From: Bacteroidia bacterium
GTDB lineage: Bacteria; Bacteroidota; Bacteroidia; Bacteroidales; VadinHA17
Direction of reading: 5' to 3'
NCBI GenBank assembly: GCA_026391215.1
Contig: JAPLDX010000090.1
Span: forward strand, 37,222-101,221
Length of the DNA stretch: 64,000 bases
Position 1 is the first letter of the stretch. Each line of letters starts with the position of its first letter. The notes under the pieces are model-generated. The model saw nothing but the letters and a program-made list of their open reading frames with translations. It did no database searches and had not been told where the DNA came from. Shown one piece after another: positions 37,835 to 47,722 of the stretch. The position numbers and the translations under genes are program-made.

Positions 37835-40272
37835 ATGAAATACGGTTACTTTGATGATAAAAAAAGGGAATATGTAATTACTAATCCGCGTACTCCATGG
37901 CCCTGGATCAATTACCTGGGAACTGAAGACTTTTTCTCTCTCATATCAAACTCCGCCGGCGGTTATTCTTTTTGTAAGGATGCCAAATTCCGCCGGATCA
38001 CACGCTACAGGTACAATAATGTCCCGATGGACAGCGGAGGAAAATACTTCTATTTAAAGGATGGCGACACTATCTGGTCACCAGGATGGAAACCCTGCAA
38101 GACCGGGCTCGACAGTTATGAATGCCGCCATGGGATGAACTATACAGTTATAAAAGGTGAAAAAAACGAGGTTTCAGCAAGCGTTCTGTATTTTGTACCC
38201 CTGAAAACCTGGGCTGAGGTGCAGAAACTCACACTTACAAATAATTCAAAAACAACCAAAAAGCTTAAGGTTTTTTCGTTTGTCGAATGGTGCCTGTGGA
38301 ACGCTGCCAGCGATATGGAAAACTTCCAGAGAAATTTTTCTACAGGGGAAGTGGAAATCCAGGGTTCAGTCATCTATCATAAGACCGAATATAAAGAAAG
38401 GCGCAATCATTATGCCTTCTACTCTGTAAATGTGCCTGTTCAGGGATTTGATACTGACCGTGAGTCTTTCTTTGGCTTATATAATGGTTTTGATGAACCT
38501 CAGGTTGTCTCTGAAGGCAAACCTCATAACTCAGAAGCCCACGGCTGGTCTCCGATTGCTTCACACTATATTGAAGTGGAACTTAAGCCCGGAGAATCAA
38601 AAGATTTTATATTCGTATTAGGTTATGTTGAAAATAAAGAGGATGAGAAATGGGAATCCAAAAATATAATCAACAAGAAGAAGGCAAAAGATACAATAGC
38701 AAAGTTTGATACTGCCGCTAAAGTTGATGCTGCGCTGGCCGATCTGCGAAAATACTGGGATAATCTGCTGAGCATTTACACAGTTAAATCAGGTGACGAC
38801 AAACTTGATCGCATGGTAAACATCTGGAATCAGTACCAGTGCATGATTACTTTCTGCTTCTCCCGTTCGACTTCATTCTTTGAATCAGGAATAGGCCGCG
38901 GCATAGGCTTCCGTGACTCCAATCAGGATCTTATAGGTTTTGTTCATCAGATTCCTGAAAGAGCAAGGGAGAGGATCATTGACATAGCTTCAACCCAGTT
39001 CCCTGATGGCGGATGTTACCATCAGTACCAGCCACTTACAAAAAGAGGAAATAATGACATTGGCGGAGGTTTTAATGATGATCCTTTGTGGCTCATCCTT
39101 GGAACTATAAGTTATATAAAGGAAACCGGTGATTTTGGCATCCTTGATGAAATGGTTCCTTTTGACAATGATGCATCAGTTGCCCGTACATTGTTTGATC
39201 ATTTGACTGTTTCATTCGATCATGTTGTAAATAATCTTGGGCCGCATGGACTTCCTCTTTCCGGACGTGCCGACTGGAACGACTGCCTGAATCTGAATTG
39301 CTTCTCAAATGATCCGGATGAATCATTCCAGACCACTGAGAATAAAACAGAAGGATCTAAAGCTGAATCTGTTATGATAGCAGGTTTGTTTGTAGTTTAT
39401 GGCCGCGATTATGTTGATCTCTGCAAAAAGCTGGGAAAGAATGATGAGGCTTTGCGTGGTCAGAACAATGTGGATGCTATGGTCAGAACAATTAAGGAAA
39501 GTGGCTGGGACGGGGAATGGTTTATCCGTGCTTATGATTTTTTCGGTCATAAAGTCGGTAGCAATGAAAATCAGGAAGGCAAGATCTTTATTGAATCTCA
39601 GGGAATGTGTACCATGGCAGGGATTGGAAAGGAAGAAGGTCTTTGCACAAAAGCGCTGAATGCAGTAAAAGAACGTCTTGATTGTCAGCATGGCATCGTA
39701 TTGAATAACCCTGCATTCACCAGGTATTATATTGAATACGGCGAAATATCATCATATCCTGCAGGCTACAAAGAAAATGAAGTGTTTTCTGCCACAATAA
39801 TCCCTGGATCATGATTGGCGAAACTGTTGTTGGCAATGGTGATCGTGCATGGGAGTATTACAGGAAGATATGTCCTTCGTACCTTGAAGAAATAAGCGAT
39901 CTGCATAAGACCGAACCTTATGTATATGCTCAGATGATTGCAGGGAAAGATGCTTTCAAGCCCGGTGAAGCTAAGAATTCCTGGCTGACAGGTACCGCCT
40001 CGTGGAATTTCTATGCTATCACGCAGTATATATTAGGTATTCGCCCTGATTTCGATGGACTTTTAATTGATCCGTGCATTCCTTCCTCGTGGAAAGGATT
40101 TGAGGCAACCCGGAAATTCAGAGGTGCCACTTATCTCATTGAAGTCGTAAATCCTGATGGCAAATCCAAGGGAGTACAGAAAGTAACAGTTGATGGCAAA
40201 CTGCATAAATCAAATCTGATACCTGTTTTTGGAGATGGTAAAGAACATAAAGTGAATATTATCCTTGGATAG
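37835..40272 (+). pseudogene. GH94 cellobiose phosphorylase-like gene, split by a 1-nt frameshift at about 39780 (real or sequencing error)
   Basis: [41 protein letters not shown]; GYKEN continues in another frame as (G/A)[14 protein letters not shown]...SWLTGTASW. Confidence 0.88.
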
Positions 40273-42225: not shown

Positions 42226-44449
42226 ATGAAACGGATACTTACAATCTTAATCTTCCTTCTTGTCGGTGCAACATCTTTTGCCCAGAAAGATAAAAACACA
42301 GACAAGGAGAAAACGCAGGATAACAAGATCACTCCAGGTGCTTCTGGAGTTAAAAGAAGCATTGGATACAAGTTTAGCTCAATATCTGAGGACAAGGATC
42401 CGGGTGATGGAATATTCAGGTATAACAACGTGAATGTAACTTCTGTGTCCTGGATCTATATTGATAAAAATGACATAAAAGGAGAGGATCAGACCAACTG
42501 GTACAAGACCTGGAATGAAACTACGGGAGCCACTGGCAGAGGGCAGCTGGTTCTTGTGGCATTAAGGGGAGATAATGTAAACGTTTTCAATATAACTGAT
42601 GTTTTCATAGATGGCAACGGGTACTGGAAGTTCCCGGTGAAGTATGTGTCAGGCAAATTGCCTGTAAATGATTCAGTATATTTCAGTCACTGCGGTTCCG
42701 GCTGCTGAAGTAGTTACAGAAGTTGCTGTTGTTGCAGAGGCTCCGATAGTTGAGGTAGTTACAGAACCTCCTGTAGTTGAGGTAGTCACTGCGGTTCCGG
42801 CTGCTGAAGTAGTTACAGAAGTTGCAGTAGTCACAGAGGCTCCGGTAGTTGAAGTGGTCACTGAGGTTCCTGCTGCTGAAGTAGTTGCAGAAGTTGCAGT
42901 AGTCACAGAGGCTCCGGTAGTTGAAGTGGTCACTGAGGTTCCGGCTGCTGAAGTAGTTGCAGAAGTTGCAGTAGTCACAGAGGCTCCGGTAGTTGAAGTG
43001 GTCACTGAAGTTCCGGCTGCGGAAGAAGTTGTTGTAATTGCGGAAGCGCCTGTTGTCGAAGCGGCTCCTGCTGTTCCTGCAACGGAAGAAGTTGTAGTAA
43101 TTGCGGAAGCGCCTGTTGTCGAAGCGGCTCCTGCTGTTCCTGCAGCGGAAGAAGTTGTAGTAGCTGCAGAAGTCCTTGTTGTCGAAGCGGCTCCTGCTGT
43201 TCCTGCAACGGAAGAAGTTGTTGTAATTGCGGAAGCGCCTGTTGTTGAAGCGGCTCCTGCTGTTCCTGCAGCGGAAGAAGTTGTAGTAGCTGCGGAAGCC
43301 CCGGTTGTTGAGGCGGCTCCTGCTGTTCCTGCAGCAGAAGAAGTTGTAGTAGCTGCAGAAGCCCCTGTTGTTGAAGCAGCTCCTGCTGTTCCTGCAGCGG
43401 AAGAAGTTGTTGTAATTGAGGAAGCGCCTGTTGTTGAAGCGGCTCCTGCTGTTCCTGCAACGGAAGAAGTTGTTGTAATTGCGGAAGCGCCTGTTGTCGA
43501 AGCGGCTCCTGCTGTTCCTGCAGCAGAAGAAATTGTGGTAATTGCGGAAGCCCCAGTTGTTGAGGCGGCTCCTGCTGTTCCTGCCGCAGAAGAAGTTGTA
43601 GTAGCAGAAGCTCCTGTTGTTGAAGCAGTTCCTGAGGTTCCTGCAATTGAAAAGGTTGAAGAAGTTGCAGTAGTAACGGAAGCTCCTGTCACAAAACCTG
43701 CTCCTGACACTAAAGAGACAACAGTAGCCCCTGGTCCGCCAAGAATTACAGAAACAAAACCTGCACAGGAAACAAAAGAAACGACAGTGGCTCAGGGTCC
43801 TCCGAGAGTTACTGAGACTAAACCTGTCCAGGGAACTCAAGGGACTACAGTCTCCCAGGGTACTCAGAGAGCTCCTGTGACTCAACCTGCCCGGGAGACA
43901 AGGGTAAATGAAGCTCCTGTAACCCAGAATTACTATGGATCGACGAGTGTCAGCCGCAGAAAATGTTATCGCGGTATAATTGAGATGGGTTATGCTTTGC
44001 GTGTCAGTGAATACGGAATGAACAACTTCAGGTTTAACTTCATTAATGGTTTTAATATAGGTCATACCTCAATAGGACTTGGAATTGGTGTCCGAAAATA
44101 TTATGACAAACCAGCAAATCATCCGGACTGGCATCTTGTCTCAAGCGATGTCCAGATACCGGTTTTCCTTGATATAAGAACGACATTTTCATCAAAGAAG
44201 GTCACACCATACTTAGGAATTGGAATTGGTAATTCAACAGGCTTTGATACTGATACTGTGAAAAACAATCCTGAAGGGTTATACTTTCATGCTACAGGCG
44301 GGATCTGGTTTAATATCTCCGACAGATTTGCAGTGTTTGGTGGCTTTGCATATGAATTGCAAAGACTGGAATATGCCAAATTTTCTGATGAGATCCCTTA
44401 TAAGAAATTTACCAACTCAATAAGTCTCAATATCGGCATTGCATTTTAG
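42226..44449 (+). CDS. Surface protein: signal peptide, globular head, V/A/E/P repeat stalk, C-terminal outer-membrane beta-barrel; frameshifted at about 42685
   Basis: ORF 42226-42708 has a signal peptide and ends where the repeats begin; ORF 42668-44449 has no signal peptide, carries the repeats and a barrel ending LNIGIAF. Confidence 0.7.
42686..43012 (+). repeat. 72-bp coding tandem repeat (about 4 copies, VTEVPAAEVVAEVAVVTEAPVVEV)
   Basis: GTCACTGAGGTTCC recurs at 42857 and 42929, 72 nt apart; first copy has an extra partial unit. Confidence 0.9.
43013..43639 (+). repeat. 63-bp coding tandem repeat (9 full copies plus one 60-bp copy, PAAEEVVVIAEAPVVEAAPAV)
   Basis: Counted directly from the translation; differences between units are mostly synonymous. 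Confidence 0.93.
43694..43888 (+). repeat. Degenerate 63-bp Thr/Pro-rich repeat (about 3 copies, KPAQETKETTVAQGPPRVTET)
   Basis: Visible in the translation between the acidic stalk and the barrel. Confidence 0.75.
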
Positions 44450-44482: not shown

Positions 44483-45520
44483 TTAATGTTCATGCCGATG
44501 ATGCAGATCAGGATAATGTTTATGGATATGTTCAATTTCTTTATGCTCATGCAGATGTGAATGTTTCAGAGTTTTATCTTCATCCCCCTCATGAATATGG
44601 TCATGATGGTCATCATCGTGACTATGCAGATGTATATGAACCATGCCCTTATGGTAATGCGTATGCCCATGTGAGGCTATATTAGTAAATACTATCCCTA
44701 GTACCAGGATTGAAAAGGAAATCATAACTATCAGAGTTAAAGGCTCTCCAAGGAATATCCAGGCTGCAAATATCCCCCAGAACGGAGCTGTACTAAATAG
44801 TATCTGACCTCTTGTTGCTCCTAAATTTTGTGCTGAAGTAACATAGAGAACTATACTGATACCGTATGAAAAGACACCAATTAAAAGAGCTGCAGGAATA
44901 TAGTTTAACTGAATTTGCCAGTTACTTAAAAACATGCCTATCGTTAAATTTGTAATACCTCCGAAAACACCTTTTACAAACGTTATTGTCTGGGGTGAAA
45001 CTCCATCTATTATTGCAGAAAAATGATTATCAAATCCCCAGGAAATGCATGCTAATAATATGAAGATTGCAGAAATAATACCACTTGATGTTTCCTGAGA
45101 GGAAATAATAACTCCCGCACACAGAGTTAACAATATTCCAACTATTGCATAACGATCCAAATGATCTTTAAATAACAAAACTCCAAAGATTGCAGTAGCT
45201 ACAAGTTCCATATTCAGCCATATGGATACAGACATGGCATTAGCGGTTTTTAAACCAATCATTAAAAACAGAGGACCCAGTATTCCACCAAAGAGGATAA
45301 CTCCGCCTAAATACCTCTTCTTACTTGTTTGCCTTAATGCTTTAATCTCAGCTTTTCTGTTTTTTATTATATAGGGAAGAAATGCTAATGCCGCACCCAG
45401 ATATAACAATCCCGCCAAATGGAAACTATTGAGCTGAGATAATATGATTTTACTCAATGGAGTTGCCACACCAAAAAGTAAGCCTGCAAATAATCCAATT
45501 AAGATCGATCTTATTTTCAT
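44483..45520 (-). CDS. DMT/EamA-family transporter with His-rich C-terminal tail
   Basis: About 10 TM helices, CISWGFDNH, GVFSYGISI, STAPFWG; tail HGHTHYH...HKHYPDLHHRHEH; start moved to 45520. Confidence 0.88.
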   Translation of the reverse strand: MKIRSILIGLFAGLLFGVATPLSKIILSQLNSFHLAGLLYLGAALAFLPYIIKNRKAEIKALRQTSKKRYLGGVILFGGILGPLFLMIGLKTANAMSVSIWLNMELVATAIFGVLLFKDHLDRYAIVGILLTLCAGVIISSQETSSGIISAIFILLACISWGFDNHFSAIIDGVSPQTITFVKGVFGGITNLTIGMFLSNWQIQLNYIPAALLIGVFSYGISIVLYVTSAQNLGATRGQILFSTAPFWGIFAAWIFLGEPLTLIVMISFSILVLGIVFTNIASHGHTHYHKGMVHIHLHSHDDDHHDHIHEGDEDKTLKHSHLHEHKEIEHIHKHYPDLHHRHEH

Positions 45521-45521
45521 A

Positions 45522-46196
45522 CTATTTGATTCCGCGCACAAAAGAGAGCACCGGAAGCCCCAGAACACGGAACTTTGCCTGAGAAATCTCTATTTGAGAA
45601 AAACCCGATGATTCCATTATAGGTTGTAATTCTTTTAAATCATGTTTTAACATAAATCCTAAAAATAACTTTAAGATCCTCCTTGACATAGGACGTTGCG
45701 GTAAAGCTAGATCAAGCACCAAAAATCTTCCCTGGGGTTTGAGAACACGATAAATTTCTTCAATTCCCTTATTTCTTACCTTTTCAGACATATGGAAAAT
45801 CATGAAACTGCACATTACAACATCAAAATTCTCATTCGGAAAGGGAATATCTTCAATGTTCCCTAGTTGAAATGTGATATCCAATTTGGCCTGTGCGGCC
45901 TTTTTCTGGCTGGCTTCAATCATTACGGGGATGATATCAATCCCGAAAACACTGCCAGTCGGACCTGCCTGTCGTTTTGCTGCAAGAGTTAATGTACCGG
46001 TAGCACATCCAACTTCAAGGACACAATCTCCCGGTTTTACCAGTGCCAGGTTTATAGTCATTCTTCGCAGAGCATCTTCCCGGCCTAAGGTTATTCTTTT
46101 CATGTATTTGTCATAAGAATTCACCATTTGTTCCATTTGATTTTTAATGGTGATGTCTTCATCAGTGCTGTTTTGATTTGATCTGTTCTCAGTCAT
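45522..46196 (-). CDS. Class I SAM-dependent methyltransferase (UbiE-like)
   Basis: VLEVGCATG, GIDI, FDVV, RVLKPQG. Confidence 0.88.
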   Translation of the reverse strand: MTENRSNQNSTDEDITIKNQMEQMVNSYDKYMKRITLGREDALRRMTINLALVKPGDCVLEVGCATGTLTLAAKRQAGPTGSVFGIDIIPVMIEASQKKAAQAKLDITFQLGNIEDIPFPNENFDVVMCSFMIFHMSEKVRNKGIEEIYRVLKPQGRFLVLDLALPQRPMSRRILKLFLGFMLKHDLKELQPIMESSGFSQIEISQAKFRVLGLPVLSFVRGIK

Positions 46197-46889: not shown

Positions 46890-46982
46890 ATGAAAACAGT
46901 TACAATAGGTATATTTTGCTATTTATTATCAAGTAGTTTTATCTATTCTCAGGGAAAGTTAGAAGCAGATTTAATGGCATGA
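46890..46982 (+). pseudogene. 30-aa signal-peptide-only ORF (probable truncated gene)
   Basis: MKTVTIGIFCYLLSSSFIYSQGKLEADLMA*; stop codon overlaps the next ATG (ATGA). Confidence 0.35.
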
Positions 46983-47722
46983 TATTTAGAAAATTACAAT
47001 CCGGAACAGTCAATTTATATGTGATTATCCTTCTCATGATTTTAGGATTCTCATCCCTGCCAAGTGTTTCACAGAGTCATAAAACCATAGACCTCGAAGA
47101 AATACCTCAGAAGAAAATCCGCAAATACCTGGTATCGAGATCATTTGATCAGATGAATGACTTTTCTTCCATTCATGCCAGTTGGAAAAAGGACATCGAT
47201 GCATCAGATTATAATGTCATTGAAAAAACATTTTATCTGAAAAATAAACTTTCGAATGTCTGGGATTTCTACAGGCATATTAATCCCGTTAAAATGTGCA
47301 ACGGTCGATCTATCCAGTTTGGATTACTGATATCAAAGCCTACAAACTCTGTTATATACACGAATAATCCCTATTTACCTGAAATTGATACTGGTCAGGT
47401 TTATTTTCTCAACATAAGACTGATGAAAGGACTATTCAATATTCCAGTCGCATTTGAGATTATCAATATTGACCAGAAACAACAAATAGTAGAGTTTAGT
47501 TATATCGATAATAATAAATCGCTGGGGAAACAGACCATACAGTTTTTTGATAATGGAGAGGGTCGCACAAAAATTGTCCATCGGAGTTATTTTAAAAGCG
47601 AATCTTCGCTTCGTGACAATTTACTTTACCCCCATTTTCATAAAAAATTCATTAAGGATTTCCATAGAAATATAAAGCAACTTATTAAAAGTAATAAGCT
47701 TACTTTCCCCATTTTAAATTAA
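46979..47722 (+). CDS. Hypothetical secreted protein (possible SRPBCC-like fold)
   Basis: 247-aa ORF with N-terminal hydrophobic segment; no confident family. Confidence 0.6.
   Translation: MIFRKLQSGTVNLYVIILLMILGFSSLPSVSQSHKTIDLEEIPQKKIRKYLVSRSFDQMNDFSSIHASWKKDIDASDYNVIEKTFYLKNKLSNVWDFYRHINPVKMCNGRSIQFGLLISKPTNSVIYTNNPYLPEIDTGQVYFLNIRLMKGLFNIPVAFEIINIDQKQQIVEFSYIDNNKSLGKQTIQFFDNGEGRTKIVHRSYFKSESSLRDNLLYPHFHKKFIKDFHRNIKQLIKSNKLTFPILN

Follow-up and report, generated by a model that had tools for sequence, protein, structure and literature searches.

A phage tail-fiber-type bead joined to a predicted eight-stranded outer-membrane barrel in Bacteroidales: a candidate periplasmic tether

What is a domain of the phage tail-fiber type doing at the N terminus of a bacterial protein that appears to be anchored in the outer membrane, and on which side of that membrane does it lie? 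The question is raised by positions 42226 to 44449 (plus strand) of a 64,000-nucleotide (nt) stretch of a Bacteroidia bacterium of the order Bacteroidales (assembly GCA_026391215.1, contig JAPLDX010000090.1, positions 37,222 to 101,221 of the forward strand), the whole of which is called the window here. A preliminary description of the locus, drawn from its letters, had proposed one autotransporter-like protein that displays a phage-fiber-like head away from the cell on a long acidic stalk. We found that the head is homologous to a bead domain of phage fibers, that head and barrel are joined in one polypeptide in relatives, and that the barrel is predicted to be a closed eight-strander of the small integral outer-membrane protein (OMP) class. 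The best overall explanation, in which we place slightly more belief than doubt, is a single gene, split in the window only by mis-assembly, for an outer-membrane-anchored periplasmic tether with a phage-derived head. A module of virion fibers would thus have been taken over once by cellular genomes and joined to a minimal outer-membrane anchor.

Gene layout and the frame break

Two plus-strand open reading frames (ORFs) in differing frames span the locus, 42226..42708 (160 amino acids [aa]) and 42668..44449 (593 aa), and a TAA stop at 42665-42667 closes the frame of the second. In the first ORF, the head follows a signal peptide and a short charged spacer; the second carries V/A/E/P repeats, a Thr/Pro/Gln-rich linker, and the C-terminal barrel. 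The parts, in order, are as follows (pLDDT, predicted local distance difference test).

42226..42282, plus strand: signal peptide, residues 1-19, with MKR, a hydrophobic run, and SFA ahead of Q (MKRILTILIFLLVGATSFA, then Q)
42283..42354, plus strand: short spacer rich in Lys, Asp, and Thr, of variable length among aligned relatives
42355..42684, plus strand: head, a predicted beta-sandwich homologous to the tandem bead domain of phages, lacking its last strand in the window
42685..42727, plus strand: probable assembly break with a change of frame, from contigs of sequencing runs and alignment to the relative L001
42728..43687, plus strand: acidic, low-complexity V/A/E/P repeat stalk (tandem repeats; pLDDT mostly <56 in the model of the relative P0061)
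43688..43960, plus strand: Thr/Pro/Gln-rich linker of 91 aa, net charge +4, with ETKETTVAQGPPR-type units
43961..44449, plus strand: C-terminal eight-stranded integral outer-membrane beta-barrel, from the model and Foldseek, with the stop codon

The preliminary description had listed the signal, the head, the V/A/E/P repeats, the Thr/Pro linker, and a barrel ending in Phe, and each of these was present where it had been placed. Signal peptidase I is predicted to cleave before Gln20, in line with the "Q-rule" of Bacteroidota (cleavage before Gln), and both M1 and Q20 were invariant across 12 aligned family members. The spacer was modeled with low to middling pLDDT, and its end, ITPGASGVK (from 42328), is already part of a conserved ITPGASGVKRSIGY stretch; the portion of the head quoted in the preliminary description runs from Y48 to G143 (42367-42654). 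Counted from 42683, the stalk comprises 335 aa with a net charge of -66 (V 0.33, A 0.27, E 0.20, P 0.12) and is probably a disordered or extended linker; its DNA consists of true tandem repeats (72 nt x3.9 and 63 nt x10.1), and two long minus-strand ORFs across it (345 and 460 aa) are by-products of the repeat. A further repeat of 63 nt x2.7 lies at 43691-43861 in the Thr/Pro/Gln-rich linker, whose TT..RR..TQ units have counterparts in relatives. The barrel segment starts at 43961 and covers 162 aa, ending in ...NIGIAF.

The change of frame was addressed with contigs of four sequencing runs, compared with window positions 42300-43100; the runs come from one freshwater-sediment study that may include the source sample and are not independent. 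The 20 runs listed included no RNA data. Contigs of three runs (X1, X2, and X3) matched the window without a single difference over 201-385 bases, and all diverged from it exactly at 42684. Beyond that point, the X3 contig translates to YVFERIAHQG. In the relatives, a single ORF leads from ...NDSVYF through YVFxRIAH into the linker, whereas the window runs from TATTTC (ending at 42684) directly into a copy of the repeat unit, without the YVFxRIAH last strand, as seen in the alignment to L001. The X1 and X2 contigs carry 117 further letters past 42684, the final 30 of which equal 42728-42757, i.e., they rejoin the window. By record lengths rather than a printed alignment, we infer 87 letters (29 codons) between 42684 and 42728, compared with 43 in the window, a count that would unite the frame of the head with that of the stalk; read in the stalk frame, the letters directly before 42728 in these contigs give a stalk-like E/V/A/L/P stretch.

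No contig of X1, X2, or X3 covers 42685-42696, and the depth in the position bin that contains this segment comes fully from the two flanking contigs. A separate 61-letter contig (42697-42757) gives the segment at 42728 two different predecessors, and the true gene therefore has more repeat copies than the window; 42697-42727 is probably a copy seated further inside it. The break falls at the exact edge of a tandem repeat, a kind of position at which short-read assemblies fail, and the closest genome relative, L001 (head 80% identical), has a run of N within the same coding repeat (L001 8001-10063). Because the run contigs leave the window at 42684 and 42685-42696 is uncovered, the frame break is most likely an assembly error in the repeat, and the real gene most likely encodes one polypeptide, somewhat longer than the window suggests. 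The single protein of the preliminary description thus stands for the relatives, whereas the window itself offers two frames and a head without its last strand. The source genome is a 3.39-Mb bin of 135 contigs, 98.9% complete, with a single copy of the gene.

Alternatively, the locus may be a true pseudogene, in which the last part of the head and the first part of the stalk were lost to an out-of-frame deletion, leaving the gene dead in this strain. The two frames and the missing YVFxRIAH piece would be expected in that case, and a nearby gene of family GH94 is also split (37835..39814 and 39811..40272), so that there are more frame breaks in this genome or its assembly. We nevertheless regard a pseudogene as highly improbable, given that the contigs of three runs part from the window at 42684 and leave its junction uncovered, that the supposedly deleted YVFERIAH piece is present in run contigs, and that the junction sits at a repeat edge in a gene that is interrupted by N in L001 as well. 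Programmed +1 frameshifting at 42668-42685 was also considered and was rejected, since the relatives are single ORFs and the run contigs carry a different, longer sequence there.

Head, barrel, and the family that joins them

The head has numerous relatives. A phmmer search of 1.84 billion cluster representatives returned 1682 at E<=1e-3, of which 470 reached <=1e-10 and 61 reached <=1e-30; identity to metagenomic copies reached about 48%, and many matches were proteins of 1000-1800 aa with 2-8 matched stretches. When 20 of these matches were picked and scanned, Pfam assigned collagen triple-helix repeats to 4, DUF2793 to 1, fn3 to 1, and no family to 14, and PHROG placed 10 in its tail category and left 6 without a match, with collagen repeats accounting for part of the PHROG assignments. 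Among 50,697 phage records searched by tblastn, 4 records from 3 phages matched at 32-41% identity (E 1e-10 to 2e-19): the collagen triple helix repeat protein WJZ48563.1 of Actinomycetia phage DSL-LC01 (41%, 2e-19), the putative tail fiber AGE60292.1 of Pelagibacter phage HTVC010P (32%, 1e-10, at three places in the record), and a putative tail fiber of a Caudoviricetes phage.

Structural comparison gave a similar picture. The fold was taken from an AlphaFold model of a relative (P0061, 85% identical; alignment of 86 sequences), which was confident over residues ~45-160, with eight strands and one helix, and left the stalk unstructured; block-mean pLDDT was 73-98 over residues 41-160 and 93-98 in 7 of the 12 blocks. 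In BFVD, 51 entries matched this model at E<=1e-3; most were proteins with collagen repeats from uncultured Caudovirales, and the best had a root-mean-square deviation (rmsd) of 2.3 over 124 columns at 34% identity; many lower rows had a large rmsd, perhaps inflated by the unstructured tail of the model. The nearest ESM Atlas clusters of the head were viral (scores 0.91 and 0.90), and another relative taken whole (P0023) scored 0.86 against clusters of small outer-membrane barrels; these scores serve as leads only. The link to phage fibers with collagen-like repeats, made in the preliminary description, was thus confirmed, and the head does have homologues among phage proteins. Foldseek against the PDB was empty for it at E<=1e-3.

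Matches in BFVD also included collagen-repeat proteins of giant viruses (Marseillevirus LCMAC102, Klosneuvirus, and Indivirus), whose large rmsd points to the extended tail of the model as the cause of some of these matches. More distant head-like domains (26-39% identity) were seen at chromosomal loci of Devosia, Mesorhizobium, a proteobacterial metagenome-assembled genome (MAG), and Azospirillum (L017-L020), presumably in prophage or tail-fiber-like genes.

Other collections were less informative for the head. Pfam gave no family at E<=1 save a sub-threshold DUF6705 over the signal region, and no SLH; NCBIfam gave nothing meaningful for any of the three pieces queried, nor did PHROGs for the head or the barrel. 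A VIA-align comparison with 48,161 chains peaked at Z 5.3, with 7 rows at or above Z 5 and no row as high as Z 8, and its rows, which mix some phage tail parts with unrelated helicases and enzymes, were taken as noise. A profile of the whole family searched against PDB sequences likewise yielded only low-complexity noise, the best match (E 0.0042) being an unrelated capsid protein.

How the domain is used in phages was examined in 108 phage-like proteins with 333 domain copies. The gap between neighboring copies was <=10 aa in 164 of 225 cases, 192 of the 333 copies had >=3 G-x-y triplets within 25 aa, and a median of 267.5 residues followed the last copy, with only 5 of the 108 proteins ending within 30 aa of it. 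In phages, therefore, the domain is a tandem shaft bead and not a receptor-binding tip, and the "receptor-binding-type" module of the preliminary description is not supported. By a crude test, a signal-like N terminus was present in 2 of the 108 phage-like proteins versus 52 of 68 family proteins. Phage fibers thus have 1-8 tandem beads, often flanked by G-x-y triplets, no signal peptide, and further domains after the beads, whereas the protein described here has a single bead of the same predicted fold, which follows a signal peptide and is joined to a membrane barrel.

In a FastTree phylogeny of 403 domain copies (those with <90 profile positions dropped; rooted on the most distant phage-like copy), the 68 barrel-linked heads and 11 family fragments fell into one clade (support 1.0, stem length 0.76) nested among the phage-like copies. 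This topology fits a single capture of a phage bead by cellular genomes; the direction is sensitive to where the root is placed and to the bias of the hit list toward close relatives. The motifs DPGxG, R, N, D, and G are common to the head and the phage copies, and at 17 positions the bacterial clade reaches >=90% conservation while the phage copies do not.

The barrel was modeled with AlphaFold from 66 sequences and a 179-aa query. The model (mean pLDDT 88.9) is closed and has eight long antiparallel strands, at residues 20-31, 38-50, 53-65, 81-92, 98-111, 120-135, 141-157, and 163-178 of the query. The inter-strand connections measure 6, 2, 15, 5, 8, 5, and 5 residues, with the short ones (2, 5, and 5) on the side of the chain ends and those of 6, 15, 8, and 5 on the other. 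One face of the strands is hydrophobic (I12 F8 L7 V5) and the other is rich in Gly with few charges (G13 R5 N5 Y5), the assignment of an outward face not being taken from coordinates. Foldseek against the PDB listed 30 matches at E<=1e-3, and the best solved ones were all small integral OMPs: NspA (1p4t; 1.7e-6, template-modeling [TM] scores 0.63/0.72), OmpW (2f1v and 8qxp; 2.1e-6), and OmpA (1bxw; 9.3e-6), followed by the OprF N-domain (4rlc), Ail, and OmpX, with designed transmembrane barrels also listed.

Judged by its modeled fold, the barrel is a small integral OMP of the OmpX/NspA/OmpW/OmpA class; by Pfam threshold it is not a member, since its match to OMP_b-brl (PF13505; E 0.0062, 17.2 bits) lies under the curated cut-off of 28.7 bits, and 3 of 12 family members reached E<=0.01 (best 0.0029). 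Apart from this match and DUF6705, both sub-threshold, no Autotransporter, TbpBBD, lipoprotein C, or other Pfam family was found at E<=1. The residues directly before the barrel have pLDDT <50, and no helical plug segment is predicted there. The suspicion that the barrel is too small for a classical 12-strand autotransporter was well founded, with eight strands counted in the model and NspA, OmpW, and OmpA as the closest structures.

Head and barrel belong together. With the 160-aa ORF as the query, 58 proteins of 291-795 aa were retrieved (E<=1e-3, 43-76% identity), and head, linker, and barrel are all found in intact relatives of 510-795 aa. Local hidden Markov models matched both head and barrel in 69 of 187 fetched proteins, always with one head, so that the combination proposed in the preliminary description does recur in single polypeptides and single-ORF relatives. 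One of the 69 (P0156) was rejected from the family as a phage-like protein with a spurious barrel hit. With the barrel as the query, 59 longer proteins (326-1038 aa) were found, of which 43 were already in the set scored as having head and barrel; among the 16 new ones, 12 had a normally placed head and barrel, 2 started inside the linker without a head, and 2 had a family-type signal peptide with only a stray head hit kept by the script. All 18 shorter barrel matches begin inside the linker or the barrel on short contigs and are fragments, leaving no stand-alone barrel relative among them.

Across the family the head is 43-76% identical, while the linkers vary freely. Linker length ranges from 65 to 445 aa (median 288). 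Of the 69 proteins (including P0156) scored for linker net charge, 38 fall below -5, 25 lie within +/-5, and 6 exceed +5. The "acidic stalk" of the preliminary description is therefore apt for the window (net -66) but is not a family-wide trait. Members of this family are systematically fragmented in short-read bins, as seen in the N run of L001 and in the 18 short barrel matches, and genes with coding tandem repeats in metagenome bins are easily mis-called as pseudogenes or fragments.

Location of the head and competing explanations

In the proposed model, the protein would be exported by Sec and cleaved before the invariant Gln, and its C-terminal 162 residues would fold into the eight-stranded barrel, to be inserted into the outer membrane by the beta-barrel assembly machinery (BAM). 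With both barrel ends in the periplasm, the linker and the single N-terminal head would hang under the outer membrane. The head, of ~120 aa, would have been captured once from the bead of a collagen-like phage tail fiber and strongly conserved since, as a phage-derived binding or assembly module, and the protein as a whole may act as a flexible outer-membrane-anchored periplasmic tether whose head binds a conserved envelope component.

In outer-membrane barrels with an even number of strands, both ends lie in the periplasm, as seen in every solved member of the eight-stranded class, and to our knowledge the N-terminal domains that precede such barrels are periplasmic in every class except the autotransporters, in which a 12-stranded pore holds the linker. 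Because both ends of the eight-stranded class face the periplasm, the head and linker of the present protein are probably periplasmic, in keeping with this general rule, and the periplasm is thus the more likely place for a stalk that the preliminary description had put outside the cell. A disordered chain of 200-450 residues is, by estimate rather than computation, of the right order to span the periplasm. In addition, a conserved head with clade-specific residues next to a drifting linker is easier to reconcile with a fixed endogenous ligand than with a surface caught in an arms race. The most plausible ligand would be a glycan such as peptidoglycan, but this is a guess, and a doubtful one.

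Several observations weigh against this explanation. The periplasmic placement is drawn from the general rule for even-stranded barrels. The linker is very long, has a net charge of -66, and varies fast in repeat number, traits that are also typical of surface stalks. We know of no periplasmic role for the phage-fiber domain and of no ligand for it even in phages, and because neither Foldseek nor VIA-align found a solved relative of the head, its fold offers no functional hint. The gene is a patchy accessory one (10/64, 0/136, and 0/300 genomes in the samples given below), which is odd for a structural tether. Furthermore, the frame is broken in the window itself, and the 87-letter count was derived from record lengths.

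Alternatively, the head and acidic stalk may be exported to the cell surface by the small barrel or an unknown helper and serve as an adhesin or phage decoy by a new type-V-like route. We consider this unlikely, and its stricter form quite unlikely, namely that the eight-stranded barrel is the sole anchor of a surface-exposed head and stalk, an undescribed type-V-like mode in Bacteroidota that provides a phage decoy or docking site or an adhesin. Surface display would explain the autotransporter-like order of passenger, long linker, and C-terminal barrel, and a stalk of strong negative charge with repeat numbers that vary among close relatives, as in many surface stalks; virion fibers, from which the head derives, do work outside cells, but in phages the domain is a shaft bead and not a tip. 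The patchy accessory distribution is usual for phage-interaction genes, yet no defence family of PADLOC was matched and the head is highly conserved rather than diversifying. As for the exit route, Helicobacter Hop adhesins reportedly use an eight-stranded "interrupted" barrel with the passenger between the first strand and the other seven, but there is no beta-strand ahead of the head for such an arrangement. A Hop-like loop insertion was accordingly excluded: the eight strands are contiguous at the C terminus, and every strand that precedes the linker is part of the head. The barrel model is instead a closed, contiguous eight-strander like NspA, OmpW, and OmpA, with a Gly-rich inward face and no spare strand, and the lumen of small eight-stranded barrels is packed. 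With no autotransporter match in Pfam at E<=1 and no conserved neighboring gene for a transporter among 17 loci, the "autotransporter-like" protein "displayed away from the cell" of the preliminary description loses ground to the periplasmic tether.

Two further explanations concern the origin and the export of the protein. The fusion may have arisen in a prophage as a conversion gene that serves superinfection exclusion or receptor masking, which we regard as very unlikely; on which side the head lies would be less important in that case. The head clade is nested within phage-like copies, and the barrel is of the small Ail/OmpX-like class, to which Lom of phage lambda belongs, a small barrel protein encoded beside the tail-fiber genes; the patchy distribution within the genus would also suit such a gene. 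However, no phage gene is present among the flanking genes in the window, and because no gene cluster is common to the 16 related loci, the gene does not appear to travel with a prophage. Moreover, no barrel-linked head was found by tblastn in the 50,697 phage records, in which the 4 matched records are fiber or collagen proteins. The chance that the protein is instead cargo of a type XI secretion system (T11SS), its barrel acting, like TbpBBD or lipoprotein C, as a soluble secretion domain that a Slam-type OMP would recognize in order to release or display the protein, seems to us minimal. Known cargo does combine a variable and sometimes disordered N-terminal effector with an eight-stranded C-terminal barrel, but the system is described for Proteobacteria (PMC12282271). 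Neither TbpBBD nor lipoprotein C was matched at E<=1, the listed Foldseek matches comprise integral OMPs and designed transmembrane barrels and include no TbpB, fHbp, or hemophilin chain, and the strand faces (I/F/L/V versus Gly-rich with few charges) resemble those of membrane barrels. SlipAM (PF04575) had no match in the source genome, nor in any of 14 control genomes.

Comparison with known systems places the parts of the proposed tether more readily than the whole. The barrel has much in common with NspA, OmpW, the transmembrane domain of OmpA, the OprF N-domain, Ail, and OmpX: its eight strands are antiparallel, the turns next to the chain ends are short, the presumed outer face is hydrophobic, and the last residue is Phe. 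Yet its sequence identity to these proteins is only 9-17%, at Foldseek E values of 1.7e-6 to 1e-3, and none of them has a large N-terminal domain and a linker of several hundred residues, both of which are present here. In OmpA and OprF, the barrel comes first and the periplasmic domain last, the reverse of the order found here. Type Va autotransporters have the same gross order (signal peptide, passenger, linker, and barrel) but a 12-stranded barrel, whereas the present protein has eight strands, no Autotransporter family match, and no predicted helical plug. The SLH-barrel proteins of the OmpM type are similar in layout, and in layout only, with an N-terminal periplasmic binding module, a stalk, and a C-terminal barrel, and the present protein may work in a comparable way. 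The stalk of OmpM is a coiled coil, whereas that of the present protein is of low complexity; OmpM also has an SLH domain, whereas no SLH was matched by Pfam here, and the eight-stranded barrel is not a porin. OmpM of diderm Firmicutes, with a periplasmic SLH region and a beta-barrel, tethers the outer membrane (PMC10628300), but it belongs to a different phylum and has no sequence relation to the present protein. Mosaic adhesive trimer (MAT) fibers of Bdellovibrio are likewise bacterial chromosomal proteins built of phage-fiber-like modules (PMC10769870); they are long multi-module surface fibers of a predator, in contrast to a single bead on a membrane barrel. Cargo of the T11SS (Slam) shares the variable N-terminal part and the C-terminal eight-stranded barrel, but its barrel is a soluble, Slam-dependent TbpBBD or lipoprotein C domain (PMC12282271), whereas the barrel here looks membrane-embedded.

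The location of the head determines what the family could teach. If the head is periplasmic, the protein would suspend a binding module beneath the outer membrane in a new way, the tethers known from this phylum being of the OmpA and Pal types, and it would provide the first tractable, monomer-encoded context in which to find the ligand of a widespread and unstudied phage bead. If the head lies on the surface, an eight-stranded barrel would have to support export of a passenger, for which we know of no secretion type; this would be the more remarkable outcome.

Distribution and neighboring genes

Among species-representative genomes, 16 loci with the family were found, all in Rikenellaceae, Bacteroidales, or Bacteroidetes MAGs; at least 11 of these 16 Bacteroidales-type loci are single ORFs, and the others are interrupted by contig ends or runs of N. 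One labeled member (P0027) is assigned to a Methanosarcina sp. MAG, all others with labels being Bacteroidales, and is probably a binning contaminant. In genome samples, the family was present in 10 of 200 other genomes of the taxonomic family, all of them in the genus of the window (10/64), and in 0 of 136 genomes from 19 other genera of that family; a sample of 300 other genomes of the order contained none.

Database names of family members are "hypothetical protein" and, twice, "opacity protein-like surface antigen." No published description of the family was found in a literature search whose coverage excluded subscription journals, and PADLOC assigned no defence family to the two ORFs or to two intact relatives. 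This family of predicted outer-membrane proteins from uncultured Bacteroidales is unnamed and has no Pfam model; its parts are of known kinds, and their combination is undescribed. No conserved partner gene emerged, as no gene cluster was common to more than 5 of 17 loci (the 16 loci and the window). The genes that flank the locus in the window encode metabolic or transport functions: GH94, a Gfo/Idh/MocA oxidoreductase, an EamA transporter, a methyltransferase, and GH2.

Three of the surrounding genes deserve mention in their own right. The GH94 gene (37835-40272, plus strand; cellobiose/chitobiose phosphorylase type) is present as two overlapping ORFs (37835..39814 and 39811..40272), which align with positions 1-334 and 346-420 of the catalytic-domain profile. 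The split lies in non-repetitive sequence and reflects either indel errors of the assembly or a decayed gene. At 46979-47722 (plus strand), a 247-aa protein has a signal-like N terminus and no Pfam family at E<=1e-5. The EamA-family transporter (44483-45568, minus strand) carries an extremely His-rich C-terminal tail of ~60 residues (HGHTHYHKGMVHIHLHSHDDDHHDH...), a composition that suggests metal binding or metal-linked transport.

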